A stretch of 64,000 bases of DNA, from contig JBFXLE010000009.1 in NCBI GenBank assembly GCA_050173015.1, positions 1 through 64,000 of the forward strand, in the 5' to 3' direction. The notes beneath the pieces were generated by a model, which ran no database searches, was not told where the DNA came from, and worked only from the letters and a program-made list of their open reading frames with translations. The position numbers were made by a program, and so were the translations under genes. Each line of letters begins with the position of its first letter. The stretch's first letter is position 1. The stretch is from Calditrichaceae bacterium (lineage in GTDB: Bacteria; Calditrichota; Calditrichia; Calditrichales; JBFXGD01). This document shows, one piece after another, positions 7,893-64,000 of this stretch.

Positions 7893-7920
7893 GAATTCTA
7901 ATTGCTATAAAAGGTTTTAG

Positions 7921-9064: not shown

Positions 9065-9077
9065 CGATTTTTCCTCC

Positions 9078-18167: not shown

Positions 18168-18175
18168 TACCTTTT

Positions 18176-21201: not shown

Positions 21202-21211
21202 GAGCGCGCCC

Positions 21212-22186: not shown

Positions 22187-22289
22187 ATTTCTCATAGCCA
22201 AATGGTCCCGCTAATGAATGTATAGTTAAACGATCAATCATTGTAATTGATCAGTAATTTTCCAATTTATACCGGAATCCAGTTCCGGA

Positions 22290-24125: not shown

Positions 24126-25463
24126 TTATTTGTTAATATCAATATATGTTGCTTCATCGTGACCCCAGATTTTAATTTTGTACGTGAACCCTTCAGGATC
24201 GAGTTTTGTTTTCGGTTCATAGGCAAGAAATTTTCTGTAATGCCTGCTAAAGGATATCAATATGGATAATACGGCCATGATCACGCCGCATATCATGTAG
24301 ATCAGCGGAATATTTTGACCCGTAAGATCCCCGGCCACTCCTCCGAGGAGCATGCCGAGAGGCGCGATACTGCCCGATAGCGTAGTGAGCACTCCGAATA
24401 CTCTTCCCCTGATCGCGCTTGGTGTGGATAATTGCAAAATAGTTATAATGGTGACCATTATGAATCCGTTAAACATGCCGCCGATAAAAGCGAGAAACAC
24501 TGCCAGCGGGGCAGAGGTAACCAATCCCAAAATCCCATATCCCCCGGATTCAATAATAGTAAAGATGATGAACATCTTTGAACGCGGTTTGCCGTGGAGA
24601 TTGAAAATTCCAACCGAGATGTATCCGAATAAAATTCCGATCCCATGGGATGCAAGGAAGAAACTATACCAGTCAACCGAAACTTTTAAAAAATTATCCA
24701 CATAAAAGGGGAGAAGTACAATTACCGGCATCGTAAAGAAATTGATAAATATTGAAACAAAGAGGAGCATTTTTAATCCGGTATTCTCTTTAATGTATAC
24801 AATCCCTTCCCACAAATCATTTTTAAACGATTGGTACTGGCCTTTTAAATCTTTTTCTTTTTCAGGGAAAACCTGCGGAATCTTTATAAATAATTCACTG
24901 ATTGCCGAAAACAAATAGCTGATCCCGTCGATCAGAACCACGATAGGGGCGCCGAGAATTTTAAACAATGTACTTCCGATTCCCTGGCCGAGGAAAAGAG
25001 ACACCTGTTCCGCGAATTGTGACATGGAGTTGGCGGCAGATAATTTTTCTTCAGGAACAAGGTCCGGAATTGAGGCGGAAATGGCCGGGCCGAAAAATGA
25101 ATTTACCGTAGAAGCTAATATGGTAATGCTAAATAACCAGACGGCGATTAATATGGTCGCTTCAGGCGCGGTGAACATAACGGCGGCCAGGCTGAGGGTC
25201 GCCAATCCATTGATCAGATCACTGAAAATGATGATATTGCGCCTCGAGTAACGATCTGCAAACACGCCTCCGATGGCGCTGAAAAGAACCACCGGCACGG
25301 CGGCGGATGTCCAGAGCAACCCGATCAGCGTTGCGGATTCAAAGGCATTTTTCATCCACCATACCATGGCAATCAAATAAATATGCGTTCCCAGTTTGCT
25401 TACAAACTGGCCCTGCCAGAGCAGCATGAAGTTTTTGTTTGTCAGTTTTACAGGCTTTTCCAA
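24126..25463 (-). CDS. MFS efflux transporter (DHA3/macrolide-efflux-like), probable product exporter
   Basis: About 12 TM helices, NFMLLWQGQFVS N-terminus, GVFADRYSRR motif A, RGRVFG; lies inside the NRPS cluster. Confidence 0.9.
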   Translation of the reverse strand: MEKPVKLTNKNFMLLWQGQFVSKLGTHIYLIAMVWWMKNAFESATLIGLLWTSAAVPVVLFSAIGGVFADRYSRRNIIIFSDLINGLATLSLAAVMFTAPEATILIAVWLFSITILASTVNSFFGPAISASIPDLVPEEKLSAANSMSQFAEQVSLFLGQGIGSTLFKILGAPIVVLIDGISYLFSAISELFIKIPQVFPEKEKDLKGQYQSFKNDLWEGIVYIKENTGLKMLLFVSIFINFFTMPVIVLLPFYVDNFLKVSVDWYSFFLASHGIGILFGYISVGIFNLHGKPRSKMFIIFTIIESGGYGILGLVTSAPLAVFLAFIGGMFNGFIMVTIITILQLSTPSAIRGRVFGVLTTLSGSIAPLGMLLGGVAGDLTGQNIPLIYMICGVIMAVLSILISFSRHYRKFLAYEPKTKLDPEGFTYKIKIWGHDEATYIDINK

Positions 25464-25472
25464 TTTTCCACC

Positions 25473-28400
25473 TTATTCCTTTTTATCTACATCCAGGTTG
25501 TCCAGCAGCAAACCGATCTTTTCCGCGAGTATTTTTACGTTTGGTTTGGTCATCATTGTAATATGGTCGCCGGGTACATTGATAATATCAACGCCTTTAC
25601 CGGCATATTTTTTCCAACCCAAATCATCAGGGAGATTATCGTAGTCCCGGTTTTCATCCGCCCTGAAAAGGGTGATTTTCCCGTTAAAATTGAGCGGTTT
25701 GTACTTTCTCCAGGCGCCGGTCTGAATTTTATTGATATGTACATAAAGTTTAAACTGATTTTGTCTGATAAATCTTGGAAGCACTTTTTCCTTTTTCGCG
25801 ATTTTGAGCACAAATTTCAGCTGCTCATCATATTCCATTTCACGAAGCATTTCCGCGTCGAGTTCAAAATGAGAGGAGAACATTTTTTGTAATAGCTCGC
25901 TGTCATCTTTTGGCTCCTCCTGGTGGGGGATATACGGACCGGAATCGAGAATACCCAGAAATCCCACTTCCTGATTCATTTCAGAGAACTGCCTGCCCAT
26001 CTCAAAAGCCACGATCACACCAAAGGACCATCCGGCAAGAAAATACGGTCCTTCCGGTTGTTGCCGGCGTACCGCGTCCACATAGTAGGATGCCATGGAT
26101 TCAATAGTCGTATGAAGATCCAGTTTACCATCAAATCCCCGCGCCTGAATCCCGTAAACCGGCCGGCGCGTATGAAGCAATTCAGCAAGCTGAATATACC
26201 AGTGAGCGCTTCCGCCTGTGGGATGAATAAAATATACCGGTTCAGATGCCGTTCCCTTTTTTAATTCCACAAGCGGATTAAAATTATCTGACTTCACTTC
26301 CTGAGTGAGCAGTTTTGCCAGATTCTCAATGGTCGGATCGGAGAAAAGGCTCACTAAAGGAATCTCTCTGTCAAATTCCTGCTGAATTTTATCAATAACC
26401 CTGATTGCCAGAAGAGAATGTCCGCCCAGATCAAAGAAATTATCCGTGATACCAACAATCGGTATATTTAGAATTTCCCGCCAAATCCGAACCAGTTTTA
26501 GCTCAATGCTGCCGCGGGGCGCGATATGGTCTTCATCAATCCTTATTTCGTCCAGCTCCGGCGATGGCAACGCTTTTCTGTTAACTTTACCGTTTGGCAG
26601 CAGCGGAAATTTTTCCAGACGGATCAACGCTCCGGGAATCATGAATTCGGGCAGATCATTTTTGAGCGCGTTTCTTATCTGCTGTGTGGAAATATCCGAA
26701 TTGTCTTTTATAATTATGTATGCCGTCAGACGCTTATCTCCGGGTGAATCTTCCCGTACAATCACCGCAGAATCGGTCACCCCCGGCACTTTTCTGAGCA
26801 AGGACTCAATTTCGCCGAGTTCAATGCGGAAACCGCGGATTTTTATCTGATTGTCAATTCGATCCAGATATTCAATATCTCCACCATCCAGGTAGCGTAC
26901 CAGGTCACCCGTGCGGTATAACCGGCTGCCGGGGATTTGATCAAACGGATTCGGCACAAATTTCTCCGCGGTAAGATGCGGCTTGTCCAGGTAACCGCGC
27001 GCCAGCCCTGGGCCGCCGATATAGAGTTCTCCCGGTATGCCCACCGGAAGCGGGTTCATAAACGGATCAAGAACATAAAGACGGATATTGTCAATGGGTC
27101 TGCCAATGGGAATCGCATCGCTGTCAGGTAATTCACTGACCCGGTGATAGGCGGCAACTATCGTTGATTCCGTGGGGCCGTATCCGTTAATAAAGATTCT
27201 GTTTTTATACCAGCGGCTCGCAATTCCGCGTGTACACGCTTCGCCGCCGGATACAATGGTTTTAAGTGACGGCATGGGATCTTCAGGTAAAATACTAAGC
27301 AGAGAAGGCGGAAGCAGCACTTTTGATATTTTTTCGGAGTTTATCAATTTGATAAATTCCGCCGGCGCCAGAAGCGATTCTCTGTTGACGATAATCAGGC
27401 ACCCGCCCGAACAAATAGTGGCGAAGACTTCCTCAACCGAGGCGTCAAAACTGAATGACGCGAACTGAAGCACCCGGCTTTTTGGGGTGTAAGAAAATTT
27501 ATCAATCAGAGAGTGGATAGTGTTGCAAAGTCCGCCGTGGTGCAGCATAGTGCCCTTGGGTTTACCTGTGGATCCGGATGTGTAAATCACATAGGCCATG
27601 TTCTCGGGAAAAACAGGCAGATTAATATTTTCGCTGCTCTCGTCACTGATGATGTCCCAGATTTCATCCATGTAGATGCGATGACCAAGATTCTCGGGCA
27701 GACCTGCGGCCAAAGATCGTTCCGTCAGTAAAATATTGGCTTTGGCATCTTCAAGCATATAGGAAATTCGTTCCTTGGGATACGCCGGATCGATCGGTAC
27801 ATACGCGCCGCCCGCTTTCAGAATCGCAAGAGCGGCGATAACCATTTCAACAGAACGGTTGAGACATATTCCGACCAATTCTTCCCTTTTGACGGATTGC
27901 TTTATCAGATAACGTCCAAGCTGATTAGCTTTGGCGTTAAGCGCGGAATAAGTTATTTCATAATCCCCAAATTTTACCGCGATGGCCTCGGGACTTTTTT
28001 CAACCTGAGCTTCGAACCAGAGATGAATCGAAACCATGTCGGGAAAATATTTCCCTGTTTGATTCCATTCAGAAACCATTGTTTGGGTTTCCGATGGTGT
28101 CAAAATCGGTATTTCGGATAGTTTTAGGTTTGGATTGGAAGCCATGGAGCTGAAAATGGTTTCCAGATGTCCGAGCATGCGTTTTATGACCGTTTTACTA
28201 AACAAATGGCTTTGATATGCCGCTTCCACGGCTAAATGATCTCCGGGAGAGGCGACGATGGTAAGCGGATAATTTGTTCTTTCAAATGATTCGATCTCAC
28301 TTATCTCAAGCGCGTTTTGATGCCGGTTCATTGATGTATTCACGGGAAAATTTTCAAAAACAACAATACTCTCAAACAAAGGCAGTCCCCGCGGCACTTC

Positions 28401-37277: not shown

Positions 37278-37339
37278 ACAGGAAATCCTTTTTTTTATTT
37301 AAAACTCACCATACACGCGAAAAATATCTTACTCGCGCG

Positions 37340-40300
37340 CTAGGCAAGATCCGATTTTTTCATTGTAACCGCTGTCCTTGATACACGTTTAATGACAGGA
37401 GTATCACTTTCCTGTTCACCCTGTGTTTCCAGGGTCTTCATAATGGCTCCCGCGATACCCGCGGAGGTCGGTTGCTCAAACAGTACCCTTAGGGGTAATT
37501 CCACTTTAAAACGCTCTCTCAAACGCGAAAGGAACTGTGTCGCGAGCAGCGAATGACCGCCAAGATCAAAAAAGTTATCATTAATGCCCACTTTTTCTCT
37601 GTTTAAGAGTTGACCGACAATCTCCACTACTTTTAATTCGGTTTCATTACGCGGAGCCACGTATTCGCTTTCGAGATGATCACTAATGCCGGACGGGGCC
37701 GGAAGCGCTTTGCGGTCAATTTTACCGTTTGGCGTAAGCGGCAGCCGGTCCAATTTGAGTATTGAGGGAGGAATCATGTAATCAGGCAGCCGTTCGCGTA
37801 AATAGGTCAAAATTTCCGGTATTTCCAAATTCTTATCTTCTTTGACCACGAAATACGCGGCCAGCGCTTTACTTCCGGGCAGATCATCTCTGGCAATGAC
37901 AACCACATCGCTTATGTCTTTGTGTAGTTTCAGGACAGATTCTATTTCGCCCAATTCAATCCGGAATCCGCGTATTTTGACCTGCTGATCAATCCTTCCC
38001 ATAAACCCGATATTACCGTCCGGGAGATATCGCGCGAGATCACCGCTGCAGTACAACCGGTCACCGGGTTCTTCGGAGAATGGATTTGGAATAAATTTTT
38101 CGGCGGTCTGTCCCGGGCGGTTCAAATAACCCCTGGCAAGGCCGACGCCCGCGATACAAAGCTCACCGGGGACACCCATCGGGACCGGCTGTTTATATTC
38201 ATCCAGAATAAAGATTTTAAAATTGGATATAGGCATACCGATAGGTGGCCCCGAAGGATATTTACCTGAACAAAGATGCATGGAGGCGCACACCGTGGTC
38301 TCAGTCGGTCCGTAAGCGTTAAAAAATTTCCGTCCTTTCCTCCACCGTTCAACCAGCTCACCGGAAACGGCTTCACCGGCTGTGATGATCACACGAAGAT
38401 CGGGCAGTGGAGTTTCAGGCAGCACCGCCAGAACGGACGGTGGCAGTGTTATTGTTGTGATTTGCTCGTCGCGCAGCAGTTTCACTAATGCGTTACCGTC
38501 GACAATCGTCTCACGGGAAGTAAGACAGATGGCGGCGCCGCAGAGTAACGCCATGGTAAATTCCCAAACCGACGCGTCGAAGCTGAGAGATGAAAACTGC
38601 ATGATTTTGCTGTCTTTACCGACATCGAATTCTTTTATCTGAGTACTGGCAAGATTACATAAGCCACGGTGTCTGAGCATGGTGCCCTTCGGTCTCCCCG
38701 TTGATCCCGATGTGTAGATGATATAGGCAAGATTGTCCGGGTCGATGGTGACAGCAGGATTATCATCATTTTCAGTATTTATTTCTGACAATTCCCGGTC
38801 AATAACGATGGATTTGGTTTCAGCGGGAAGCATACCTCGTGTCCTTTCCTGCGCGATAACCACCGGGAGTCCTGAGTCTTCAACCATGTACGCGATTCGA
38901 TCCGCGGGATAGGCCGGATCGATTGGCAGAAACGCGTTGCCTGATTTTAAAACGGCAAGAATGGCTACAATCATATCAATAGACCGGTCCATACAGATTC
39001 CAACCGGTTTTTCCACACCGATGTCAAGGTTTAGAAGATAGCGCGCGAGTCGGTTAGACCTCGAATTTAATTCGGAGTATGTTAATTGTTCTGAACCGGA
39101 GTCGCTGTTAGCCCTGAAGATGACCGCGGGAGCATCCGGTTGCTTTTTGGCATTTAATTCAAACCACTCATGGACGCAAATCTCCGCCGGAAATTCAGAT
39201 TTTGTCTGATTCCATTGGTTAGTGATTTGTTGAGTGTCCTTTGTGGTTAAAAGCTGGAGTGATCCTACCGGATAAGATGGATCCAATGCGACGCTTGTTA
39301 ATAAAGTTTTAAAATGATCCAGCATATTTTTAACGGTTTCCGAATTGAATAAATCGGTATTATACTCCATAATGCCCAGCAGACCGGCCTCTCCTTCAAT
39401 CATGGTCAGGGTCATGTCGTATTTTGATGTAATGGTTTCGGTTTCATAAGGAGTGATAACCAGATCAGATAGCTCAATGGAGGAAACGGGTAAATTTTGC
39501 AGAACAAACGCGACCTGAAACAGGGGAGAATGACTCATATCCCTGGTTGGGTGAAGCTCTTCAACCAGTTTTTCAAAGGGCAGATCCTGATATGAATAGG
39601 CTTTCAGCGCCGTCTCACGAATCTGTTTCATTAATTCGATAAAATCCGGATCATCGTCAAAATCGGCTCTGAAGACAAGCGTGTTGACAAAAAAGCCGAT
39701 TAAACGTTCAATTTCGGGGTGTGTGCGATTAGCGATCGGAGAGCCCACAAGTATGGTTTTCTGGCGGCTGTAACGGTGTAATAGCGTTTGAAACGCGGCC
39801 AGAAGTGTCATAAACAGGGTACAATTTTCTCGCCGGCTAAGCTTGATAAGTTTACCGGTCAAGTCTTCCGATATTTCAATTGTTTCCGTGGCACCGTTAA
39901 ATGTCTGGACAGCGGGTCTTGGTCTGTCCGTTGGCAACTCCAATAATGGGGGGCTTCCGCCTAATTTCTCTTTCCAGTAGGCGATCTGTTGTTCAAGAAC
40001 ATCATCTTTGAGCCAGCCCTGCTGCCATTGGGCAAAGTCGGCATATTGAACCGGTAAATCTGAAAGCAATGGTTCATGGCCTGATGTATAAGCATCATAG
40101 CAGACGGCAATTTCATCAATTAGTAGTTTTACCGACCAGCCATCGGCAATAATGTGATGAAGTGCGAAGACAGACAGATGGCTTTGTTCCGAAAGTTTGA
40201 TTATAAGTACTCTGAATAGCGGTCCGCTTGTTAAATCGAATGATTTTTTAGCCTCCTTTGTGGCAAGATCTTTTGCTTGTTGCGATTTTACGGGTTCATC

Positions 40301-51588: not shown

Positions 51589-54500
51589 TATTTGTCATAT
51601 CCCGTTTTTTAGATTTCAACTTTTGATTTAACATTGATTTTGTCTCATCTTCTGACAATTTATCGATGCTTAATAGCAAGGCTTCCAAATCCTCGCCATC
51701 CCGGTCAATCCGTTCTATCTTAGCGGGTTTACCGTTCTCTTCTGATGCGGATATTTTGATGATTTCCCTTGATAGCGCGGCCACGGTAGGTTTCTCGAAT
51801 AACAGACTCAATGGCAGGTCAATCGCAAATTGCTCCCGGATTTGCGACATGAACTGAGTGGCGAGCAGAGAATGACCGCCAAGTTCGAAAAAATTATCGT
51901 GAATGCCGGTTTTGTCTAAATTCAGTAGTTCTGTGACAATTCCAGATAGTTTTTCTTCGGTTTCGTTTGTCGGCGCGGCGTATTCAGAACGAAGGCTCTC
52001 GCGTGAAAATTCCGGTTCGGGCAATGCTTTCCTGTCAATTTTTCCGTTAGGAGTGAGCGGCATCGCGTTGAGCATCACAAAAGAGGACGGAATCATATAG
52101 CCCGGCAAGCGTTCACTCAATTTTGATTTTAATACAGGTAAATCAGGTTCATGGCTGTTCTCAGTCACAATGTATGCCACCAGTCTTTTATCACCGGGTG
52201 AATCTTCCCGTACCATGACAAATGTTTCCTTTACCTCGTCAATTTCATCAATGATCGTTTCAATTTCTCCAGGTTCGACGCGGAATCCCCTTATCTTCAC
52301 CTGCTGATCGATACGGCCGAGAAATTCTATATTTCCGTCCGGTAAATATCTGACAAGATCACCGCTTTTATAAAGTCTGCCTCCCAATGTTTGGCTAAAA
52401 GGATCCGGAATAAATTTTTCAGCGGTTAGTCCGGGCCGGTTGAGATAACCTCTCGCCAGACCGACTCCGCCGATATGCAATTCACCCGCCGCGCCTGTAG
52501 GTAATGGCTGTAATGACTTGTCCAGTATGTAAAGACGGAAGTTGTCTATGGGCTTTCCTATCGGTGGCGCAATGCTTACATCAGGCGTAACCGCGTACAT
52601 TGATGCGCAAACAGTGGTCTCTGTGGGACCGTAGGCGTTAAAAAATGATCTTCCTTCCGACCAGCGTCGCGCCAGATCGATGGTGCATTTTTCTCCGGCG
52701 GTTATAATTGTCTGAAGATCCGGAAGAGGCCCATCCGGCATTACCGCCAATACGGAAGGCGGCAGTGTTACGGTGGTGATTTTTTCGTTTTTGAGAATGT
52801 CATATAGATTTTGACCGGTGAGCAGCTCCTCCTCACCGGCGAGACAGAGTGTGCCCCCGTTCAGCAGCGCCATGACCATCTCCCAGACCGAGGCGTCAAA
52901 GCTGAGTGACGCGAACTGAAGTATTCTGGCGCCCCGGCGGATTCCAAACGCTTTTTTTTGCGCGTTTGCAAGATTTAGTAGTCCCCTGTGATGCAATAAG
53001 GTCCCTTTCGGTCTGCCCGTGGAACCAGATGTGTAAATGACATAGGCGAGATTGTCCGCATTCAGATCACTGTGCTGATTTTCTTTTGAAGCCACCGACA
53101 ATTGTTCATCTTCTTTATCCGGAAGAATCGTATGAATATTTATATCAGGCAGAGTATTCAGGATCGATTCATGGGTTATTAGCGCTGAAATACCCGAATC
53201 TTTAATCATATATTCAATCCGGTCTTTTGGATATATTGGGTCAATTGGAAGAAAGGCGCCACCCGCCTTTAATATTGCCAAAACCGATACAGGGATATTC
53301 ATTGCGCGGGGTAGACAAATTCCGATAATTTTATCCGCGCCAATGCCATGATTTTTGAGCCGGCGCGCCAGTTGATTGGCTTTCTCATTTAATTCTCTAT
53401 AGGTCAGCGATTGTTTTTCCTGAATTACGGCGATTGTATCCGGAAACTCATTTACTTTTTGTTCAAACCATTGCGGGACAGTCGCGGCGTCGGGATAGGC
53501 AGTTTTAGTATCATTCCATTCGGAAAGCATCAATTTAAGTTCATCTTTTCCGGAGATGCTTATTTCAGAAACACGTTTATCGGGATTGTCAATAATTTCA
53601 GTTAAAATATTCTCAAAATGAGTCTGCATTCTCAAAATGGTTGCAGGTTCAAAAAGATCGGTGTTAAATTCAAAATAGCAATCCATCCCCTCCATGGTTT
53701 TGGCAATTGTCAAAGTAAGATCGTATTTTGCCGTCAGGTTTTCCGTCTCGATCGGGATGATATTAAATTCAGGCAGATCCACCATTTCAAACGGGGTGTT
53801 CTGTAAAACAAAAGCAACCTGAAACAGAGGAGAATGACTCATGTCGCGTTCAGGCTGGAGCGCTTCGACCAGATATTCGAATGGTAAATCCTGATGCATA
53901 AACGCGTTTAATGTCGTTTCGCGGACCTGTCTCAAAAGCTGCTTGAAGGTGGGCATATCCCCAAATTCCGCTTTCAGAACCAAGGTATTTACAAAAAAAC
54001 CGATGAGATTTTCCAGTTCGGATCGTGTACGGCCGGCAATGGGAGATCCCACTAAAATTTCTTCCTGTCCTGTGTAGCGGTGCAGAAGTGTCTGAAAAGC
54101 CGCGAGAAGTGTCATGAAAAGTGTGGTTCCTTCTTTTCGGCTGAGCTGTATCAGATTCCCGGCAAGATTGTCCGAAAGATGCAGTTTTATCGTCTGACCG
54201 TTAAAAGACTGTGTCGCGGGACGCGGATGATCGGCAGGAAGCTCGAGAACAGGAGGATTGATCCCGATCGTATTTTTCCAGTATTCAAGCTCTTCCTTAA
54301 GTTTTTCACCCTGCAGCCGTTGTCGCTGCCATATAGAAAAATCTGCATACTGGATCGGTAAGCCGGCAAGCTGTGATGTTTTCCTGGTTGAAAAATCCTG
54401 ATACAGGGTAGCGAACTCATTCAGAAGTACCCCAATTGACCAGCCGTCCGCAATAATATGATGGATGGTTATCAGGAGAATGTGATCGTCGGGTTTTAAT

Positions 54501-57500
54501 ATAATTATTTTTACTCTTAATAACGGCCCCGATTCAAGATTGAATGGTTGACGGGCCTCATCAGCCGTAATTTTTTTAGTTTTCAGAAACATTTCTTCTT
54601 CAGAACTTCCGCTTAGGTCCAAAGACGCAATCTTTATTTTTAGTTCGGGTAAAACAACCTGATGCGGATGCCCTTTTTCGCTTTTAAAAACGGTTCGAAG
54701 AATCTCGTGTCTGATAATAATTTGATTCAGACTGCGTTTAATAACTCCGATATCGACATGTCCATGCAGACGAAGCGCGGATGGGATATTATAATATGCA
54801 TTTCCGGGCGCCAACTGATCCAGAAACCATAATCTTTGTTGTGAAAAAGAAAGCGGTATTTCAGAATTCCTTTTTTTAGGCGCAAGGGTAGGGATATCCT
54901 TATTCATTCGCTCATCGCCGGTTGTCCCGATCAGTTTTGCGAGGGCAGCGATTGTCGGATTTGAGAAAAAATCGGGTAGTGAGATCTCAACCGCGAATAT
55001 ATCTCTGATTCTCGATGCAAGCCTGGTGGCGGTTAATGAATGTCCGCCCAGATCAAAAAAATTATCATGAATACCTATTTTCTCGATACCTAAAATTTTG
55101 CTCCAGATACCGGTTAACAGTTCGTCGATCTGATTTCCGGGCGCGGTAAATTCCTCATCACGACTCAAATCCGCCCCTTCGGGTAAGGGCAGGGATGATC
55201 TGTCAATTTTTCCACTTGAAGAAACCGGAAACTGATCCATGAAAACATAATAGACAGGTATCATATATTCCGGAAGATGTTTCTTGAGAAAGATTTTTAA
55301 TAATTCGGTATCAGGATTTTTATCGGGCTCCGGCATGTAATAGGCGATCAGTACTTTTTCACCGGGAGTCATTTCACGGGCCGTCACAACAACTTTTTTG
55401 AGATCTTTATGGTTTGAAAGTACTGATTCGATCTCCCCCGGTTCGACACGGAATCCGCGGATTTTAACCTGATCGTCAATCCTGCCGACGAATGCCAGAT
55501 TCCCGTCTCCGATGGATCGGGCAATATCACCGCTCCTGTAAAGTCTCGCGCCGGGTTGATCCGAAAACGGATCAGGTATAAATTTTTCAGCGGTTAGTCC
55601 GGGATTATTTAAATACCCCCGGGCAATTCCCGGACTGCTTAAGCATAACTCACCCGGTACTCCCCGCGGCTGAGGGTGAAACTGTTCGTCAAGGACGTAT
55701 GCCCGGACATTATCTATTGGTTTTCCTATGGGAATATTGTCGGTTAACGGTAAATCCTCATGGATGGGATTAACCGTAGCGCAAACCGTCACTTCGGTAG
55801 GTCCGTATCCATTGATAAAATGCCGTCCGATTCTCCAGCGGGACGCAGTATCCCTGGTGCATGGCTCACCGACTGAGCCAACCACCTCGAGATCCGGTAA
55901 ATCATTTTCTGACAAAATCGCGAGTAGGGAAGGCGGTGCAACAAATGTATTTACTTTTTGATCTCTTAATAATCCGGTTAGTTTATCTTCAGAAAGCAAG
56001 GTATCCCGGTCGGATATGATGAGACATCCACCCGATAAAAGGGTGCTGAATATTTCCACTACGGACGCGTCGAACGAAAGTGAAGCGAGCTGAAAGAATC
56101 GTTTGCCGGCTGAAATATGAAAAACCTTCGCGAGAGCCAGGGCGGTATTCACCGCACCGAGATGCTGCAACCATGTTCCTTTCGGACGTCCGGTAGAACC
56201 GGATGTATATATGATATAGGCAAGATGTTCAGAAGACACGACGCCTTCCGGATCTTCACCGGACTCATTGGAAATAAGATCATCAGAATTTTGAATGTTT
56301 ATCACCCGCAAATCGCTGTTTGGCAGATTTTGTATCAGGCTGTTTTCAGAAATAATAAGATTGACACCGGAATCTTTCATGATATATTTCAAACGTTCAT
56401 CCGGAGTGGATGGATCTATGGGCAGGTACGCGCCACCTGCCTTCAAAATTGCCAGAACAGTGATAATCATCTCCGGGGAGCGATTGAGATAGACCGCCAC
56501 GAGAAATTCGGGAACCACACCTTCTCCTTTTAGTATCGCGGCCAGCTGATTTGATCGTTTATTTAAATCCGAGTAGGTTAAGATTGTATCTCCGAACCGT
56601 ACAGCGTGAAAATCAGGATGCTCCTTTGCCTGTTTTTGGAATATCTCATGCAGGCATTTGTTTTTTGGGAATTCAGTTTGTGTTTTATTCCATTCCCTGA
56701 TGATTGAATCAAGTTCAGGGTTTGTCAGCAGCTTTATCTCCGAGACGGTTTTATCCGATCTGATTAGCATTGAAGTCATTATCACTTCAAGATGCCCCAG
56801 CATCCGGCTTATTGTCTCGGCATCGAATCGATCTGTCTGATAGGCGATTTCCAGAACGATATCTTCATGCGCTGATCCCACTATCGTAAGGGGATAGTTG
56901 GTCTGCTCTATGGCGTTGATGTCAAATATGCTGATGCTGTTGTTCAGCTCCTTGACGGAAGAGCTGACCGGATAGTTTTCGAACACCACGATGCTTTCAA
57001 AGAGCGGTACATTACCCCGGATTCCACTCTGTTTTTGAACTTCCGCCAGCGAACTGAACTCAAACTGACGCATTCCGGCAGACTGCTGATGAATCTCTTT
57101 CAAAAATGTCATAATCTTTTGTCCGGGCGATACCCTGATTCTCATGGGAAGCGTATTTATGAACAGGCCGATCATGGATTCGACCCCGTCCAGTTCAGGC
57201 GGGCGCCCCGAGACAGTGACGCCGAAAACAACATCCTTCTCGCTGCTGTATCTGCTCAGAAGGACAGACCAGGCGGCCTGGATCATTGTACTGATCGTAA
57301 GGTGATTGCTCCTCGTAAAGCGGGTGATGTTCTCGGACAACGACGCGGATAATCGTCTCATGGATTTCGCGTAGCCGCCGGATTTCCCGGATCCGCTGAC
57401 AGGAATATCGACCGTTAATGGAGTCGGTGCCGTGACGTCACTTAACTTATCCCGCCAATATTCTTCCGCGGCTTGCGCATCCTGCTGATTGAGCCAGTTA

Positions 57501-58048
57501 ATATAATCCCGGTATGGACGGGTTCTTTCGAGCCGGACAGCCTTGTTTGAGGCGATGGAATCATACAGGGAAAATATTTCTTTAAACAGCAAAGGAAGCG
57601 ACCAGCCGTCGATCAGGCTATGATGATTACTCCACACCATCTGCCAGACTTGCTTCTTAACTCTGATGACCGTCAAACGCAACAAAGGAGCTTTTGACAG
57701 GTTGAATCCTTTCGCCCGGTCATTTTTTAGAAAATCCGTGAATTTTGCGTCAATCTGATTTTCTGAAAATTCTATCCAATCAAGCTCTTCGATCGGAACT
57801 TCAACCGATTTATGTACAACCTGAAGCATTTTTTCAATCTTTTTGAAAACAAAGGATGTTCTCAGAACCGGATTTCTCTTTACTGCTTCTTTAACCGACT
57901 CTTTGAACGCCGCGATATTAAATTCACCGGATATCTTAAATGTTGTTTGTTCAAAATATACACTGCTTTCAGTCGAATATATGCTGTGAAAAATCATTCC
58001 CTGCTGCATGGGGGAAAGTGTGTATACGGACTCTATATTTTTATCCAT
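51581..58048 (-). CDS. NRPS: C(DCL)-A(unknown)-T-C(LCL)-A(Phe)-T
   Basis: N-terminal VYTLSPMQQGMIFH...HHSLIDGWS, internal LSFSQQRLWFL. Codes DAVVGVGVCK and DAWTIAAVCK. Confidence 0.95.
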   Translation of the reverse strand: MDKNIESVYTLSPMQQGMIFHSIYSTESSVYFEQTTFKISGEFNIAAFKESVKEAVKRNPVLRTSFVFKKIEKMLQVVHKSVEVPIEELDWIEFSENQIDAKFTDFLKNDRAKGFNLSKAPLLRLTVIRVKKQVWQMVWSNHHSLIDGWSLPLLFKEIFSLYDSIASNKAVRLERTRPYRDYINWLNQQDAQAAEEYWRDKLSDVTAPTPLTVDIPVSGSGKSGGYAKSMRRLSASLSENITRFTRSNHLTISTMIQAAWSVLLSRYSSEKDVVFGVTVSGRPPELDGVESMIGLFINTLPMRIRVSPGQKIMTFLKEIHQQSAGMRQFEFSSLAEVQKQSGIRGNVPLFESIVVFENYPVSSSVKELNNSISIFDINAIEQTNYPLTIVGSAHEDIVLEIAYQTDRFDAETISRMLGHLEVIMTSMLIRSDKTVSEIKLLTNPELDSIIREWNKTQTEFPKNKCLHEIFQKQAKEHPDFHAVRFGDTILTYSDLNKRSNQLAAILKGEGVVPEFLVAVYLNRSPEMIITVLAILKAGGAYLPIDPSTPDERLKYIMKDSGVNLIISENSLIQNLPNSDLRVINIQNSDDLISNESGEDPEGVVSSEHLAYIIYTSGSTGRPKGTWLQHLGAVNTALALAKVFHISAGKRFFQLASLSFDASVVEIFSTLLSGGCLIISDRDTLLSEDKLTGLLRDQKVNTFVAPPSLLAILSENDLPDLEVVGSVGEPCTRDTASRWRIGRHFINGYGPTEVTVCATVNPIHEDLPLTDNIPIGKPIDNVRAYVLDEQFHPQPRGVPGELCLSSPGIARGYLNNPGLTAEKFIPDPFSDQPGARLYRSGDIARSIGDGNLAFVGRIDDQVKIRGFRVEPGEIESVLSNHKDLKKVVVTAREMTPGEKVLIAYYMPEPDKNPDTELLKIFLKKHLPEYMIPVYYVFMDQFPVSSSGKIDRSSLPLPEGADLSRDEEFTAPGNQIDELLTGIWSKILGIEKIGIHDNFFDLGGHSLTATRLASRIRDIFAVEISLPDFFSNPTIAALAKLIGTTGDERMNKDIPTLAPKKRNSEIPLSFSQQRLWFLDQLAPGNAYYNIPSALRLHGHVDIGVIKRSLNQIIIRHEILRTVFKSEKGHPHQVVLPELKIKIASLDLSGSSEEEMFLKTKKITADEARQPFNLESGPLLRVKIIILKPDDHILLITIHHIIADGWSIGVLLNEFATLYQDFSTRKTSQLAGLPIQYADFSIWQRQRLQGEKLKEELEYWKNTIGINPPVLELPADHPRPATQSFNGQTIKLHLSDNLAGNLIQLSRKEGTTLFMTLLAAFQTLLHRYTGQEEILVGSPIAGRTRSELENLIGFFVNTLVLKAEFGDMPTFKQLLRQVRETTLNAFMHQDLPFEYLVEALQPERDMSHSPLFQVAFVLQNTPFEMVDLPEFNIIPIETENLTAKYDLTLTIAKTMEGMDCYFEFNTDLFEPATILRMQTHFENILTEIIDNPDKRVSEISISGKDELKLMLSEWNDTKTAYPDAATVPQWFEQKVNEFPDTIAVIQEKQSLTYRELNEKANQLARRLKNHGIGADKIIGICLPRAMNIPVSVLAILKAGGAFLPIDPIYPKDRIEYMIKDSGISALITHESILNTLPDINIHTILPDKEDEQLSVASKENQHSDLNADNLAYVIYTSGSTGRPKGTLLHHRGLLNLANAQKKAFGIRRGARILQFASLSFDASVWEMVMALLNGGTLCLAGEEELLTGQNLYDILKNEKITTVTLPPSVLAVMPDGPLPDLQTIITAGEKCTIDLARRWSEGRSFFNAYGPTETTVCASMYAVTPDVSIAPPIGKPIDNFRLYILDKSLQPLPTGAAGELHIGGVGLARGYLNRPGLTAEKFIPDPFSQTLGGRLYKSGDLVRYLPDGNIEFLGRIDQQVKIRGFRVEPGEIETIIDEIDEVKETFVMVREDSPGDKRLVAYIVTENSHEPDLPVLKSKLSERLPGYMIPSSFVMLNAMPLTPNGKIDRKALPEPEFSRESLRSEYAAPTNETEEKLSGIVTELLNLDKTGIHDNFFELGGHSLLATQFMSQIREQFAIDLPLSLLFEKPTVAALSREIIKISASEENGKPAKIERIDRDGEDLEALLLSIDKLSEDETKSMLNQKLKSKKRDMTNNG

Positions 58049-61000
58049 TTATTCATCCCGGTTATCATTTAATTCTGACAACATATTATCAAGCTCCTCC
58101 TGATCTAAATTGACGTCAAGAAAGTCGGATGGTGTGTAATCACCGGAAGCGGTTTTCTCACAATGGTCAATTAATTGCTGAAGTTCATCCATGATATTTG
58201 TTAAGAACCGTCTGACCGTCTCTTCTTTGATTAAATTACCGCTGTAATCAATGGAGAGATTAAGACTGTCGTTTACAATCGTACCGCTGATATCCAGCAG
58301 GTGTGTTCTTTTAGCGTTTGGGGCGCGTTCGGCGCCGGTATTGGGATCAATTTCATCGAAAATGTCACCGGAATCCCGCAAACCGAACTGTCCGAGATAA
58401 TTGAATGAAATTTCCGGAACAGGGGCCGCCTTGAACCGCTTTCGGATGATCATGTCATCGCTTAAATAACGGAGCAATCCGAATCCTATGCCGTGATTAG
58501 GAATCATTCTCATCTGCTCTTTTACAGTTTTAAGCGTATCCTGAATTTGAATCGTTCCATTCATGTACAGCGACACCGGATACGCCGCCGTAAACCAACC
58601 AACTGTCCTTGAGAGATCAACATCATCAAAAAGATCTTCCCGGCCGTGACCTTCAAGCTGAATATACATATGATGTTTTCCGGTCCATTTAGCGTGGGAC
58701 CGGATTATGGCCGTGAGCAGATTTTCCTGTATTTGCGTATTGTACAAAGACGGTACGGATTTTAAGAGTTTTTGTGTTTGTCGCGCTTCCAATATGGAAC
58801 TTAATCTCTGTGTGGACGATTCACTGTTCCTGCCGTCCGGAAAATCAACGGGCAACAATTGTTTTTCCACCGGGAATTGATTCTGCCAGAAAGGTACTTC
58901 TTGCGGATTTATTTTATCATTCGCGAATTTCTTTAGTTTTTCTGTCCATGTTTTGAATGAAGTTGTTTTTGGAGGAAGTTCAATTGTTCTCCCTGATTGA
59001 CTCCAATGATACGCGGAAACGAGATCTTCCAGCAGAATTCTCCAGGAAATTCCGTCCATCGCCAGGTGATGAATTGCAATAAATAATCTGTCGGATAGTG
59101 TTGGATCCAACCTGAAATAGGCCGCGTTTATGAGAGTCCCGGAGGAAAGATTAATACCGGCCTGCAGCATATTGCACTCATCTGTTATTCGTTTTGTTTG
59201 ATGCTCAACGGGAATATCTGTTAAATCAATGACTGAAAATGGGATATCCTTCGGATTATCAGAAAATGATTGGAGAATTGTTTTATTCTCTAAGACAATT
59301 TTTAATCTAAGAGCGTCATGATGGCTGATAAGCTCCCGGAATACATTCTCCAGAGATCCGGTATCCATCCTGTTAGTTGTCTTAAGGAGTACAGACTGAT
59401 TCCAATGATGCTTTTCGATAAAATCCTGCTCAAAGAACCACTTCTGAATCGGGGATAATTCCGCCGTACCGGTGACGATTCCCTGATCAGTGATTATTTC
59501 CTTTTTTGTTACCGCTACGGATGCCAGAAATTCAATGGTCGGGTTTTCAAAAAGCTGCCGGGGTGAAAGGATCAGACCGGCATTTTTTGCTCTGGCGATC
59601 GCCTGAATGCTGAGAATTGAATCACCGCCAAGTTCGAAAAAGTTATCTTTTATGCCGATTTTATCAATACCCAATAATTCCCGCCAGATTTTTACAAGGA
59701 TTTCTTCGCGCTCACTACCGGGGGCGATGTAACCTGTTTTTAAATCAGACCGGCTGATTTCAGGTTCAGGCAGGGATTTTCGGTCCACCTTTCCTGTCGC
59801 GGCTACCGGCATCTTATCCAGAAACATAAACATGGCCGGAATCATGTAGTCAGGCAGTGTAGATTTCAGATAGGCTTTTAGTTGTTCGGTGGATACCTTA
59901 TCCCGATCGGCCGGAACGATATAGGCAATCAACTGCCTGTTTCCCGCCACTTCTTTACTCATGACGATGGCTTCTTCAACTTCATCATGAAGCAGCAGGG
60001 AGGACTCTATTTCGCCAAGTTCAATCCTGAACCCGCGGATTTTGACCTGATTGTCGATTCGCCCAAGAAATTCGATGTTTCCATCCGGAAGAAATCTAGT
60101 CAGATCACCGCTTTTATACATGCGGCTTCCTCCATCCGGGTTGAAAGGATCGGGTATGAATTTTCCCGCTGTCAAATCGGGTCTGTTCAAATACCCTCTG
60201 GCCAGCCCTTCGCCTCCTATATGCATTTCTCCGGGTATCCCTTCCGGCACCGGTTGCAGGTCCTTGTCCAGAATATAAATTCTGTAATTCGGGAGGGGGC
60301 GCCCGATGGGAATATTATTTCTTTCCGCGGATAATTTTTCTGTCAGATACCAGGAAGCGGCAACGGTTGTCTCGGTGGGGCCGTAGGCATTGTAAAATTG
60401 GCGTCCGCGTGACCATCGGTCCACAATTTCTCTGGTGCATACATCTCCCCCGGAGGCCAGGGTATCAAGATCGGGGAATTGGTCGCCATCGATCACGGAC
60501 AGGACGGATGGCGGAAGAACAGCATTGGTTATCTGACCCTGTTTCATCAGTTTTACAAATCCTTCTCCCGGCAGCATTGAGTCCTGACTGGTAAGATAAA
60601 GAGTCGCGCCCGATGTTAAAGCCGTAAATATATCGGCGACTGATCCGTCAAAGCTGTAGGAAAAGAACTGTATAACGCGTCGATTCTTATGGATATTAAA
60701 TTTTTTCTGATAAGCCAGAGCCAGATTCAGAACACTGCGGTGCCGAATGGTAACACCTTTTGGACGGCCGGTCGAACCTGAAGTGAATATTACATATGCC
60801 AGATTGAGTTCACAGACATCCGTTTTTGGATTTTTAGCACTTTCGGCAGCAAAATAGTCAGAATCACTGTCAAAACTGATCAATTCTGTATTTGTACCGG
60901 GAAAACCGTCTAAAAAACGATCCTGTGTCAGTATATATTTTATTCCACAGTCCCGAATGGCAAATGCCAGTCTTTCACGTGGATAATATGGATCAAGAGG

Positions 61001-64000
61001 TACATAAGCAGCCCCCGATTTAAGTATTCCCAGGATTCCTGCTATCATTTCAATCGAACGCTCTACCGAAAGACCAATAAATTGTTCGGGGCCCGCGCCT
61101 TTTTTGATCAGATAATTTGCGATCTGATTGGCGCGATTATTCAATTCCCGGTATGTGATGCGTGTGTCTTCAAATACAAGGGCGATTGTATCGGGTGTTT
61201 TTTCTGCCTGCTGCTCAAAATATTGATGAATTGTTACGTCACGCGGATAATCGCCTGAAATGTTGTTCCAGCCATGTATAATTTTATTAAAATCAGTCGT
61301 TGAGAGCAGGGGATAGGTCGAAATCCTGCTTTCAGGCTGATCAATGACAGCGGTCAGTACATTTTCAAAATGAGTATGCATCCTCATGATCGTGGCTTCA
61401 TGAAATAAATCGGCGCAATATTCCCAGCTGCAGTCGTATTGCTCTTTATTGTCCGTTATGTTCAGGGTAAGATCGAATTTTGATGTTCGCGTATTGATTT
61501 CAACCGATTCGATATTCAGGCCCTCCAGATTCAGTGACTGAATTGATTGTTGCTGATAGGCGAACATGACTTGAAAAATCGGTGAGTGACTCAGTCTTCG
61601 CTCGATTTCCAGACCGTCCACAATCTTCTCGAACGGAATATCCTGATGGGCAAGCACATTTAATGTGGTTTGTTTTATCCGGTTCAGGTATTCACCGAAA
61701 GTGGGATTATCATCAAAATCTCCCCGAACAATGAGGGTATTGACAAAGAAACCGATTAAATTTTCGATTTCCCTATGATTCCTGTTAGCGACCGGAGTCC
61801 CTACCAGAACCGTATTTTGGCCCGAATACCGGTGTAATATCACCTGAAAGACCGAGAGAAGAACCATAAATGGTGTGGTTTCCGTTTTCTTGCTGAACAA
61901 TCGGATTTTATCAGTCAGTCCCACGGGTAAGCTGAAATGAATCACATTCCCGTTGAAAGACTGCACAGCTTTCCTCGGCCTGTCCGTTGGCAGTTCCAGA
62001 ATTGTGGAAGCGCCGAGAAGCTGTTTTTTCCAAAAATTGATTTCCCTTTGGATACGATCCTTTGACATCCATTCTTTTTGCCATACCGCGAAATCAGAAT
62101 ATTGAACATCAAGTTCAGGCAGTTCGGGTGTTTCATCCTTAAGATAAGCGTTATATAACACATTTATTTCTTTCATAAGCACCTCCATCGACCATCCGTC
62201 AGAAATGATATGGTGCATATTCCAGAAAAATGTGTGCTGTTCTTCGGTCAGCTTAATAAGTTTTGTTGTAAACAGCGGTACGGCGGACAAATCGAACGAA
62301 TATTGTGCTTCCTTTTCAAGGATATCAAAAAGAATTTTTTCTTTTTCCGGGTTATCGGAGAGATCGATTTCCGGCAGATCGATATTTAGCCGGTCATATA
62401 CCTGGAGACGCGCGATACCGTCGATCGTTTGAAACGCGGATCTGAGAATATTATGCCGGTTCACGGTAAACCGGATGCTCTTTAGTAGTGCCTCTTTATC
62501 TAATTTTCCCGTAAGCCTGATTGCGGCGGCGATGTTATAGTTATGATTACCCGGTTCAAACTGATCAATAAACCAGAGTCTCTCCTGCGCGAAAGAAAGT
62601 ATTGGCGTGACCTTCTCCGGCGCGGGCCGGATGACCGAATATTTTTCTGTTTGTTCCACAGTCCCGCCAGTCTCCGCGTTAATTGTATAGGATGAAATTA
62701 TCTCTTTGCCAAATAATCGTCCGGTAGTTTCTTCAAAATGACGGCTTAAATACGCGGCATATTGACCAATGGTAGGATAGATGAACGCTGTCCGGACCGA
62801 TAAGGACTCATCAAGTTTTTCCTGAATCCTGTTTATTAAAACCGCGGCCTGAAGTGAATTACCGCCGGATTCAAAAAAGTTGTCATGAATACCGCCAGGG
62901 GTTCGTTCCAGTACGTTTTCCCAGACTGAAAAAAGGAATCGTTCAAGGGAATTACGGGGTGGAACGTTTTCTGCTGATTCTGTGGAAGATTGATAGGGAT
63001 CCGGAAGGGAATTCCGGTCAATTTTTCCGTTTGGTGTCAACGGAAATTTTTCCAGCTTCCTCAGAACGGATGGTACCATATATTCGGGAAGACTATGCAA
63101 TAAAAAGTCCCTCAGAGCCTCCGGAGACGGATTCCCCCCTTTTTTGGGGATATAATAACCAATCAGATTGCCTGCGGTTGAACTGACTACTACCGCCTCG
63201 TCAATTTGATGATGAATTCTCAAATTATATTCAATCTCTCCAAGTTCTATCCTGAAGCCCCTCACCTTTACCTGGTGATCCAGTCGTCCAAGAAATTCGA
63301 CCGTTCCTTCGCTCATGAGACGTACACGGTCGCCGGTACGGTACATTCTGGATCCGGCATTGTCGGAAAAAGGATCGGGAATAAATTTTTCAGCCGTGAG
63401 CGCGGCTTTTTTGTAATATCCGCGTCCGACACCTTCACCCCCAATGAATAATTCACCCGGGATACCCGCGGGCAAAGGATTCATCCATGAATCGAGAATA
63501 TAAAATTTCCCGTTGGCTACCGGTCTTCCGATTGTTGGCCTTTCAGATGTAGGGACGACAGGAAACATGGTGGAATCAACAGTGCATTCAGTAGGACCGT
63601 ACATATTATAAAATTGTGTATCACGGAACTGATGAAGTTTTTGCCAGGTGTCTTCATCGATCGCCTCGCCTCCCGGTAGAACCGCGAGCGGTTTCCATCC
63701 CCGGCCATCGAATAGCCCTGAAAGAATAAGCAGTTTTAGCTGTGACGGTACACAATCCAGAACATCCAGTCTGTTTTTTCTTATAAACGAAACCAATCTG
63801 TCGCCATCGGCCCGGATGTCTTGTGGGATAATAATTATGGAATGTCCGAAGATCAGTGTCAGGATTTGTTGAACAGAAGCATCAAAGGCGATCGGGGCGT
63901 TCAAACTTACCCTCAGGCTTTCTCCATCATATCGTGAATAAACGGTTTCATAAAGGTTCGCGGCGAGATTCAGGGCAGAACGGTGCTGTATCATGGCGCC
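58049..64000 (-). CDS. NRPS truncated by the window edge: ...A(Gln/Glu)-T-C-A(unknown, Phe-clade)-T-E
   Basis: Frame open to base 64000 (...GAMIQH, just after the A3 motif). T motifs GGNS and GGDS, E motif HHLAMDGISW, C-terminal YTPSDF. Codes DAQDLGMVDK and DGAVAGAVAK. Confidence 0.93.
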   Translation of the reverse strand, partial: GAMIQHRSALNLAANLYETVYSRYDGESLRVSLNAPIAFDASVQQILTLIFGHSIIIIPQDIRADGDRLVSFIRKNRLDVLDCVPSQLKLLILSGLFDGRGWKPLAVLPGGEAIDEDTWQKLHQFRDTQFYNMYGPTECTVDSTMFPVVPTSERPTIGRPVANGKFYILDSWMNPLPAGIPGELFIGGEGVGRGYYKKAALTAEKFIPDPFSDNAGSRMYRTGDRVRLMSEGTVEFLGRLDHQVKVRGFRIELGEIEYNLRIHHQIDEAVVVSSTAGNLIGYYIPKKGGNPSPEALRDFLLHSLPEYMVPSVLRKLEKFPLTPNGKIDRNSLPDPYQSSTESAENVPPRNSLERFLFSVWENVLERTPGGIHDNFFESGGNSLQAAVLINRIQEKLDESLSVRTAFIYPTIGQYAAYLSRHFEETTGRLFGKEIISSYTINAETGGTVEQTEKYSVIRPAPEKVTPILSFAQERLWFIDQFEPGNHNYNIAAAIRLTGKLDKEALLKSIRFTVNRHNILRSAFQTIDGIARLQVYDRLNIDLPEIDLSDNPEKEKILFDILEKEAQYSFDLSAVPLFTTKLIKLTEEQHTFFWNMHHIISDGWSMEVLMKEINVLYNAYLKDETPELPELDVQYSDFAVWQKEWMSKDRIQREINFWKKQLLGASTILELPTDRPRKAVQSFNGNVIHFSLPVGLTDKIRLFSKKTETTPFMVLLSVFQVILHRYSGQNTVLVGTPVANRNHREIENLIGFFVNTLIVRGDFDDNPTFGEYLNRIKQTTLNVLAHQDIPFEKIVDGLEIERRLSHSPIFQVMFAYQQQSIQSLNLEGLNIESVEINTRTSKFDLTLNITDNKEQYDCSWEYCADLFHEATIMRMHTHFENVLTAVIDQPESRISTYPLLSTTDFNKIIHGWNNISGDYPRDVTIHQYFEQQAEKTPDTIALVFEDTRITYRELNNRANQIANYLIKKGAGPEQFIGLSVERSIEMIAGILGILKSGAAYVPLDPYYPRERLAFAIRDCGIKYILTQDRFLDGFPGTNTELISFDSDSDYFAAESAKNPKTDVCELNLAYVIFTSGSTGRPKGVTIRHRSVLNLALAYQKKFNIHKNRRVIQFFSYSFDGSVADIFTALTSGATLYLTSQDSMLPGEGFVKLMKQGQITNAVLPPSVLSVIDGDQFPDLDTLASGGDVCTREIVDRWSRGRQFYNAYGPTETTVAASWYLTEKLSAERNNIPIGRPLPNYRIYILDKDLQPVPEGIPGEMHIGGEGLARGYLNRPDLTAGKFIPDPFNPDGGSRMYKSGDLTRFLPDGNIEFLGRIDNQVKIRGFRIELGEIESSLLLHDEVEEAIVMSKEVAGNRQLIAYIVPADRDKVSTEQLKAYLKSTLPDYMIPAMFMFLDKMPVAATGKVDRKSLPEPEISRSDLKTGYIAPGSEREEILVKIWRELLGIDKIGIKDNFFELGGDSILSIQAIARAKNAGLILSPRQLFENPTIEFLASVAVTKKEIITDQGIVTGTAELSPIQKWFFEQDFIEKHHWNQSVLLKTTNRMDTGSLENVFRELISHHDALRLKIVLENKTILQSFSDNPKDIPFSVIDLTDIPVEHQTKRITDECNMLQAGINLSSGTLINAAYFRLDPTLSDRLFIAIHHLAMDGISWRILLEDLVSAYHWSQSGRTIELPPKTTSFKTWTEKLKKFANDKINPQEVPFWQNQFPVEKQLLPVDFPDGRNSESSTQRLSSILEARQTQKLLKSVPSLYNTQIQENLLTAIIRSHAKWTGKHHMYIQLEGHGREDLFDDVDLSRTVGWFTAAYPVSLYMNGTIQIQDTLKTVKEQMRMIPNHGIGFGLLRYLSDDMIIRKRFKAAPVPEISFNYLGQFGLRDSGDIFDEIDPNTGAERAPNAKRTHLLDISGTIVNDSLNLSIDYSGNLIKEETVRRFLTNIMDELQQLIDHCEKTASGDYTPSDFLDVNLDQEELDNMLSELNDNRDE

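Follow-up and report, generated by a model that had tools for sequence, protein, structure and literature searches.

The DNA analysed here, called the window throughout, comprises the first 64,000 nucleotides of contig JBFXLE010000009.1 (167,860 bases; assembly GCA_050173015.1) from a Calditrichaceae bacterium of the phylum Calditrichota. All the long open reading frames (ORFs) in its part 25473-64000 lie on the minus strand and encode non-ribosomal peptide synthetases (NRPSs) in which epimerization (E) domains recur every four modules. Together with genes located beyond the window, they probably form a functional-looking hybrid polyketide synthase (PKS)-NRPS operon whose strict period of four is derived, having arisen by recombination within the cluster atop one ancient duplication of a two-gene unit. 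From the comparison with related clusters, the threefold periodicity and two of the three identities between adenylation codes appear to be the outcome of later within-cluster recombination in the lineage of the window.

Domains were mapped with Pfam, with seeded phmmer searches and with hidden Markov models (HMMs) derived from the domains of the window itself; gC, the gene truncated at the window end, and the genes upstream of it were completed from the contig. Modules are numbered M1 to M12 over the whole line, and the eleven modules visible in the window, numbered 1-11 in a preliminary description made from the letters of the window, are M2-M12 here. Pfam recovered Condensation, AMP-binding and PP-binding domains in each long ORF and, in the terminal gene, also Thioesterase. 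The whole line amounts to 12 condensation (C), 12 adenylation (A), 12 carrier (T), three E and one thioesterase (TE) domain, the NRPS modules being spread over six proteins (Table 1). Type A genes (LCL-A-T-LCL-A-T-E) alternate with type B genes (DCL-A-T-LCL-A-T), LCL and DCL being classes of C domain, and the last gene joins a type A gene to half of a type B gene and a TE. E domains are restricted to M3, M7 and M11 among the 12 modules; each is then followed by a C domain of DCL type, and the configuration expected of the peptide is therefore L-L-D-L three times, that is, exactly three tetrads when M1 is counted in. The alternating gene architecture, the E domains on visible modules 2, 6 and 10 and the D residue at every fourth position had all been put forward in the preliminary description; the first was confirmed by the three mapping approaches, the second directly and the third as a prediction from domain order. 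The possible upstream continuation of the period that it had raised was not found: one further C-A-T module (gB) precedes gC, and before it comes the PKS loader, gA. In gA, Pfam detected AMP-binding plus a DIP2-like AMP domain, of the fatty-acyl-AMP-ligase (FAAL) type, a ketosynthase (KS), a ketoreductase (KR) and two PP-binding domains, and an acyltransferase domain (AT; PF00698) is also listed for the protein. FeoB sits upstream of gA and the cluster therefore begins at gA. The locus qualifies as a modular type I NRPS by its recurring C, A and T domains, whose core motifs are intact, and its releasing domain, and as a FAAL-initiated hybrid PKS-NRPS lipopeptide cluster by the FAAL, carrier and KS-AT(-KR) that stand before the first C domain.

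The HHxxxD motif is kept in all 12 C and three E domains, the A10 lysine in 12/12 A domains and the carrier serine motif in every T domain, with GGDSI in the three carriers preceding an E domain and GGHSL or GGNSL in the other nine. The post-E domains C4, C8 and C12 all start with LSPMQQGM, share 40-49% identity among themselves and 22-27% with the other nine C domains, and grouped among foreign post-E C domains in trees; by sequence, they can therefore be assigned to the DCL class, each E domain being coupled to one of them. We take the motifs of the C, E and carrier domains to mark the DCL, LCL and pre-E classes as in published classifications. Conserved motifs served as anchors for the MAFFT alignments in which the ten pocket residues of the A domains were read; the numbering follows what we take to be the GrsA scheme, with position 278 the least secure. 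M2 and M6 share the code DAQDLGMVDK, M5 and M9 share DAWTIAAVCK, M7 and M11 share DATKVGEVGK, and M10 has DVGEIGSIDK. The signature NGYGPTE is found in M4, M8 and M12. The three code identities (visible modules 1/5, 4/8 and 6/10) and the signature in visible modules 3, 7 and 11, each after a DCL domain, had been correctly noticed in the preliminary description.

The repeat is also apparent in the DNA. When the NRPS genes were compared with themselves (blastn), the three best matches were at offsets of 14,319-14,362 with 64-66% nucleotide identity, and the 14-kb offset bin collected 16 of the 92 matches, 1730 of the 6731 bits (26%) and 5854 aligned bases, every other bin having at most 1830 bases. 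The strongest diagonal, at about 14.3 kb, corresponds to the one predicted near 14 kb, and a weaker off-diagonal was present at about 29 kb (eight matches). At the protein level, the A domains were most similar in the pairs A7-A11 (68%), A5-A9 (55%), A2-A6 (51%) and A8-A12 (50%), the other pairs having 37-49% identity; in a permutation test, their identity was 46.4 at offset 4/8 versus 42.0 for the other pairs (p 0.003). The identities of LCL pairs ranged from 37 to 50%, the highest being C5-C9 (50) and C7-C11 (47), and permutation gave no modulo-4 excess in the window for LCL domains (42.4 at offset 4/8 versus 42.3, p 0.43) or for T domains not preceding E (43.9 versus 41.7, p 0.14). The FastTree trees of the window included domains from 120 foreign NRPS proteins, the 120 listed homologues of query residues 1-460, among which multi-DCL proteins rank first and no true orthologue is listed. 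Every supported within-cluster sister pair in these trees was at offset 4: A7-A11 (100), A2-A6 (99), A8-A12 (96) and A5-A9 (77) for the A domains, LCL7-LCL11 (99), LCL5-LCL9 (97), DCL8-DCL12 (98) and E3-E7 (93) for the C and E domains. The expectation that domain trees would cluster by position modulo 4 was borne out for A, DCL, E and some LCL pairs, but not for LCL and T identities overall. Along gE and gG, the sliding protein identity peaked at 73-83% in a C7-A7 tract (Table 1), compared with 35-50% in its flanks; we read this tract as a putative replacement or conversion copied from M11.

The same gene order and domain layout were recovered in a genome of the same genus (G001; 78-84% identity, on four contigs). 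gF was searched against the class (86 genomes), in which 37 other genomes of the order lie outside the genus of the window. Full-length B-type genes (42-56% identity, frames of 2117-2183 aa) were present in at least 21 of these 37 genomes; among the matches listed, they often occurred as two per genome about 14 kb apart and were present in another order too. The homologues of the loader had the source names 'Calditrichaceae bacterium' (88%, G001 contig), 'Caldithrix abyssi' (62%), 'Calditrichaeota bacterium' and 'candidate division KSB1'. These names point to Calditrichota, agree with the T9SS sorting domain of a neighbouring gene and outweigh the weak hint of Bacteroidota given by the neighbouring FeoB protein. 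A profile search of genome contigs with the alignment of M1 orthologues picked generic NRPS motifs, and only unrelated NRPS loci with 40-50% identity were among the matches listed.

Ten relatives were fetched and mapped (G002, G003, G004, G007, G010, G012, G013, G016, G023, and G051). In G002, G003, G004, G007, and G010, the cluster consists of C-A-T, then [A][B][A][B], with A and B for the two gene types, and lastly a terminal gene made up of four LCL modules; G013 has the same layout as far as its contig end. G012, G016, and G023 have an additional A-type gene, [A][A][B][A][B], and in G051, from another order, the contig end cuts the cluster after [A][B][A. The two-gene unit was found twice in all nine relatives with a complete region, with the [A][B][A][B] order and the gene sizes kept. 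In contrast, the terminal genes visible in eight relatives, from three other families, had no third E-DCL (0/8) and contained four LCL modules instead. The pattern of the window, whose recurrence in relatives had been proposed as a check, is thus conserved for two copies of the unit, with an extra A-type gene in three relatives, but not for the third. Two observations concern the organization of these relatives. In G012, G016, and G023 (loci L134-L147), the second consecutive A-type gene begins with LCL though the preceding gene ends in E, so that either the proteins act out of gene order or one E is unused. The terminal gene of G004 (L050:3902-5239) and G007 ends in a condensation/epimerase-like domain and that of G002 in a TE; release chemistry would therefore vary within the family.

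The codes were constant where seen in M1 (11/11), M5 (Phe-like, 11/11), M9 (10/10), M10 (Orn, 9/9) and M11 (Asn, 8/8), and M8 had a single type of code in 10/10 genomes. The window's genus differs in its M12 code from the relatives, in which this code was Tyr-like in 7/7 cases, and the codes of M2, M3, M4, M6, and M7 varied among genomes. The identity between M7 and M11 was found in 5/10 genomes and that between M2 and M6 was limited to the genus of the window and G013. In G013 (loci L151-L153), M2, M3, M4, and M6 all have near-identical Ser-like codes, another spread of one A type among neighbouring modules. A shared backbone, made of C-A-T, [A][B][A][B], a terminal multimodular gene and invariant codes, thus characterizes the hybrid cluster family of the order. 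In the majority form, found in relatives, the PKS part has a fully reducing module and a second gene, and the NRPS part has one more module (M0). The cluster of the window is devoid of M0 and of these traits; its T2-C3 linker has just 33 aa, and its terminal gene has E-DCL and three modules. The gC-like gene encodes 2949-3021 aa in 10/10 relatives versus 2645 aa in the window (about 300-380 aa longer). In G002, the one insert scanned, the segment between T2 and C3 (L035:7804-8913) contains a sulfotransferase domain (PF13469, E 1.9e-29), which suggests that the majority form may make a sulfated product. Residues 5-1384 of gA match the first PKS gene of relatives and residues 1389-2188 the end of the second, and gA looks like a putative deletion fusion. 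Taken against this background, the cluster of the window is, as judged by layout and codes, apparently a derived variant of an order-wide family.

Family trees were obtained with IQ-TREE, in careful runs for the DCL and E domains and in quick runs for the LCL and A domains; G023, in which frameshifts/stops split two genes, was left out of the family trees, and A12 of G007, split and too short, out of the A tree. In the DCL tree (23 family and 20 foreign rows), the family formed a clade (98/96) composed of DCL4 (98/93) and DCL8/DCL12 (100/99), the DCL12 of the window being sister to its own DCL8 (85/85). In the E tree, with 18 foreign E domains, E3 (93/96) and E7 (99/97) were sister groups (91/91), joined next by the terminal E of G004 and G007 (96/84). 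The sister clades DCL4/DCL8 and E3/E7 thus indicate that at least the E plus B-gene part was duplicated before the sampled lineages split. The E3a and E3b domains of G012 were sisters as well (100/99), the result of a lineage-specific tandem duplication of the whole A-type gene. In the RpoB tree, the genome of the window belonged to a clade (93/93) with G004 and family f2, nested among family f3; with this position, a single gain of E11-DCL12 is more parsimonious than three or more losses.

The A and LCL trees bear on the more recent events. The Asn clade of the A tree (100) contained (G000 A11,(G000 A7, G001 A7)) (99), (G007 A7, A11) (100) and (G002 A7, A11) (100), G000 being the genome of the window: A7 pairs with the A11 of its own genome in three lineages. 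A5 and A9 were in one clade (98), the Gln clade (100) mixed A2 and A6 of the window with A3, A4, and A6 of relatives, and A4 and A12 of the window paired (86) beside the A8 clade (87). In the LCL trees, each position formed its own clade, and positions 5, 9, 12, and 13 formed one group (82 and 96 in two quick trees). The LCL7 of the window branched inside the LCL11 clade (96 and 99), and the LCL7 domains of G003, G004, G007, and G010 were located elsewhere.

Two layers of periodicity probably explain these results. The old layer, common to the order and shown by the trees, is a duplication giving two copies of [..E][DCL-A-T-LCL-A(Phe)-T]. In the young layer, which would be restricted to the family or genus of the window, an E plus a DCL-A module closest to M8 would have taken the place of two terminal LCL modules, a C11-A11 copy would have overwritten C7-A7, a Gln-type A domain would have moved into A2, and part of the PKS and one NRPS module would have been deleted, in an order of events that we infer. 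The preliminary description had proposed the ancient tandem amplification of a tetrad; one old unit duplication (DCL4/DCL8, E3/E7) stands, but the third repeat is seen only in the genus of the window.

Several results weigh against this two-layer scenario. An approximately unbiased (AU) test left the monophyly of DCL8 without DCL12 acceptable (p 0.445), so that DCL12 could be an old third paralogue lost elsewhere. The E11 of the window was outside E7, at the deepest branch of the family E clade, which itself obtained only 81/61, and E11-DCL12-A12 is therefore not simply a one-piece copy of E7-DCL8-A8. The origin of A12 is conflicting, since it was sister to A8 in FastTree (96) and to A4 of the window in the quick IQ-TREE run (86). 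Deep LCL groupings shifted with sampling, the family LCL domains being monophyletic (96) in one quick tree and not in the other, and LCL2 and LCL6 never paired; the front half of the A-type genes thus gives no support to the duplication of a whole unit. Finally, the species topology comes from one protein, RpoB.

If one ancient tandem amplification had instead given three tetrad copies, the present cluster being their diverged remnant, as the preliminary description had it, one would expect the self-match off-diagonals at 14.3 and about 29 kb and supported sister pairs all at offset 4; the deep branching of E11 and the room left by the AU test for DCL12 as an old sister of DCL8 would also fit. 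We nevertheless consider this unlikely, since the third E-DCL is missing from the terminal genes of 8/8 relatives from three other families, among which the genome of the window is nested. Moreover, the identities of the M2/M6 and M7/M11 codes are confined to particular lineages, A7 pairs with the same-genome A11 in three lineages, and neither LCL (p 0.43) nor T domains (p 0.14) show a modulo-4 excess. Another explanation would dispense with any unit duplication: functional constraint alone would place DCL after E and gene breaks after E and keep A domains of the same substrate alike, the spacing of four being a matter of chance. In its favour, functional grouping of DCL, E and pre-E carrier domains is common to all NRPSs, no positional signal is carried by the window's LCL and T domains, and similarity follows substrate in the A tree. 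This explanation is quite unlikely, however, given that DCL4 and DCL8 are mutually closest clades against 20 foreign DCL (98/96), that E3 and E7 are sisters against 18 foreign E (91/91), that the order and sizes of [A][B][A][B] are kept in 9/9 relatives with a complete region, and that lineage-specific tandem copies of an A-type gene are directly seen in G012. Lastly, although NRPS repeats often break assemblies and G001 is broken at four places in the cluster, it is hardly conceivable that mis-joined or duplicated NRPS contigs produced the pattern, a cause that the preliminary description had already dismissed in view of the many synonymous differences: the paralogous copies do not exceed 66% nucleotide identity (64-66% for the best repeats), the contig of the window spans 167,860 bases, the fragments of G001 overlap into an identical order and layout, and ten other genomes have the same backbone. 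We thus favour one ancient unit duplication followed by recombination within the cluster.

As for the product, the FAAL-ACP-KS-AT-KR-ACP protein located outside the window would make a beta-hydroxy fatty acyl starter, which the twelve NRPS modules would extend and the terminal TE would release. The peptide expected has 12 residues, of which the third, seventh and eleventh should be D, and bears a beta-hydroxyacyl chain. We take the code shared by M5 and M9 to be a Phe code. The code of M2 and M6 is one residue off a code reported for Gln/Glu (PMC12283262), that of M7 and M11 is listed with Asn as its predicted substrate in Table 2 of PMC3547906, whose printed code strings for Asn and Thr match codes read here, and that of M10 is the Orn code (PMC3992020). 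With substrates predicted from codes and D configuration from domain order, the sequence would be acyl-X1-Gln2-D-X3-X4 / Phe5-Gln6-D-Asn7-X8 / Phe9-Orn10-D-Asn11-X12. Repeated turns or a structure resembling a beta-helix had been put forward in the preliminary description as a possible fold of the peptide.

The cluster can be compared with several known systems. The fengycin/plipastatin synthetases of Bacillus also have consecutive C-A-T-C-A-T-E genes, D residues at fixed spacing in a lipopeptide and a TE on the last protein, but their E-ending genes are directly successive (period two) and the lipid enters via a starter C domain, with no FAAL-PKS loader. As far as architecture goes, the present cluster differs in that E-ending genes alternate with DCL-starting dimodular genes, with a period of four, in Calditrichota. 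The linear gramicidin synthetases LgrA-D are likewise multimodular NRPSs in which E domains set a regular L/D pattern, and among solved structures LgrA chains matched A7 and A5 best. In gramicidin synthesis, however, the line opens with a formylation domain and closes with a reductase, and L and D alternate at each residue, whereas here the start is a FAAL-PKS, the end a TE, and a D residue is expected every fourth position; with E only in M3, M7, and M11, the contrast with gramicidin drawn in the preliminary description holds. Cyanobacterial FAAL-PKS-NRPS systems, for instance of the hassallidin type, share with our cluster a FAAL-initiated hybrid loader and NRPS modules with E/DCL pairs. Cyanobacterial NRPSs were among the nearest foreign homologues, one of which (P0112, 39% identity) is named in its source as involved in hassallidin biosynthesis; the foreign proteins, used as outgroups only, have about 37-45% identity to DCL8, and no gene order in common was seen. 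The tridecaptins of Paenibacillus, which target membranes and lipid II, are linear lipopeptides of 13 residues whose D residues include those at positions 4, 8, and 12. Their likeness to the predicted product is at the level of architecture and product; tridecaptins have further D residues elsewhere and are made by two large synthetases with no repeated two-gene unit.

Apart from surveys listing Calditrichota among phyla with NRPS clusters, the literature, supplementary tables aside, yielded no account of this cluster or of its product, and no non-ribosomal product described from Calditrichota. The clusters described here correspond to an uncharacterised lipopeptide family, conserved across a little-studied order, of a known hybrid PKS-NRPS lipopeptide cluster type. 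The family is conserved, yet modules 2-4, 6-7, and 12-13 vary, and it records side by side whole-gene duplication, C-A and A replacement within the cluster, deletion and E-DCL gain. It could thus be a useful natural data set for the rewiring of assembly lines, and it offers a concrete prediction in the form of a 12-mer whose residues 3, 7, and 11 are D. One may speculate, although we regard the idea as rather doubtful, that the lipopeptide is a conserved trait of the order, such as a surfactant, an envelope-active or a signalling molecule, rather than an accessory antibiotic. Its invariant scaffold (residue 1, Phe5, X8, Phe9, Orn10, Asn11), in which every fourth residue is D, would in that case take up a repeating amphipathic fold undescribed for lipopeptides, of which the genus of the window would have completed the third turn by internal recombination.

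Table 1. Genes, domains and neighbouring genes of the cluster. Positions are those of the window unless the contig is named; (-), minus strand; ~, approximate; residues are predictions from codes.
Feature	Position	Length (aa)	Domains and remarks
gA, loader	contig 69430-76005, beyond the window	2191	FAAL-ACP-KS-AT-KR-ACP (ACP, acyl carrier protein)
gB (M1)	beyond the window, between gA and gC	1127	LCL-A-T
gC, type A (M2, M3)	58049..64000 (-), cut by the window end; start at contig 65986	2645	LCL-A-T-LCL-A-T-E
E3 (in gC)	~58067-59494
gD, type B (M4, M5)	51581..58048 (-)	2155	DCL-A-T-LCL-A-T; M5 code Phe-like
gE, type A (M6, M7)	43723..51588 (-)	2621	LCL-A-T-LCL-A-T-E; M6 Gln-like, M7 Asn
Raised-identity tract, M7 versus M11	45559..47439 (-)		from the final third of C7 across the greater part of A7
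E7 (in gE)	~43744-45171
gF, type B (M8, M9)	37340..43726 (-)	2128	DCL-A-T-LCL-A-T; M9 code as M5 code
gG (M10-M12 and TE)	25473..37277 (-)	3934	LCL-A-T-LCL-A-T-E-DCL-A-T-TE; M10 Orn, M11 Asn
E11 (in gG)	~29412-30842
DCL12 (in gG)	~28065-29411
TE (in gG)	~25515-26240
MFS transporter	24126..25463 (-)		directly 3' of gG (Pfam)
Type II thioesterase	23018..23821 (-)		free-standing (Pfam)
4'-Phosphopantetheinyl transferase (PPTase)	22290..23021 (-)		ACPS (Pfam)

Downstream of gG, the NRPS accessory set is complete, with a PPTase, a type II thioesterase and an exporter gene, the neighbouring MFS transporter being the likely exporter judging from its family and position. In relatives, ORFs of 458-503 aa come after the terminal gene, similar to the MFS gene as compared by size. 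Just 3' of the PPTase gene (17394-22201, minus strand) lie genes for a sigma-54-dependent activator with GAF and a Ser/Thr kinase with PEGA, together with two ORFs (329 and 257 aa) without a Pfam match; these genes may be regulators of the cluster. They are followed (14966-17173, minus strand) by the gene for a 735-aa protein that combines carboxypeptidase-regulatory-like repeats with a T9SS sorting domain at its C terminus (Por_Secre_tail, E 2.3e-7). Further away, also on the minus strand (4396-10430), the genes of two ABC exporters (585 and 580 aa) adjoin those of the subunits I and II of a cytochrome bd oxidase, and look like a cydDC-cydAB set rather than peptide exporters.

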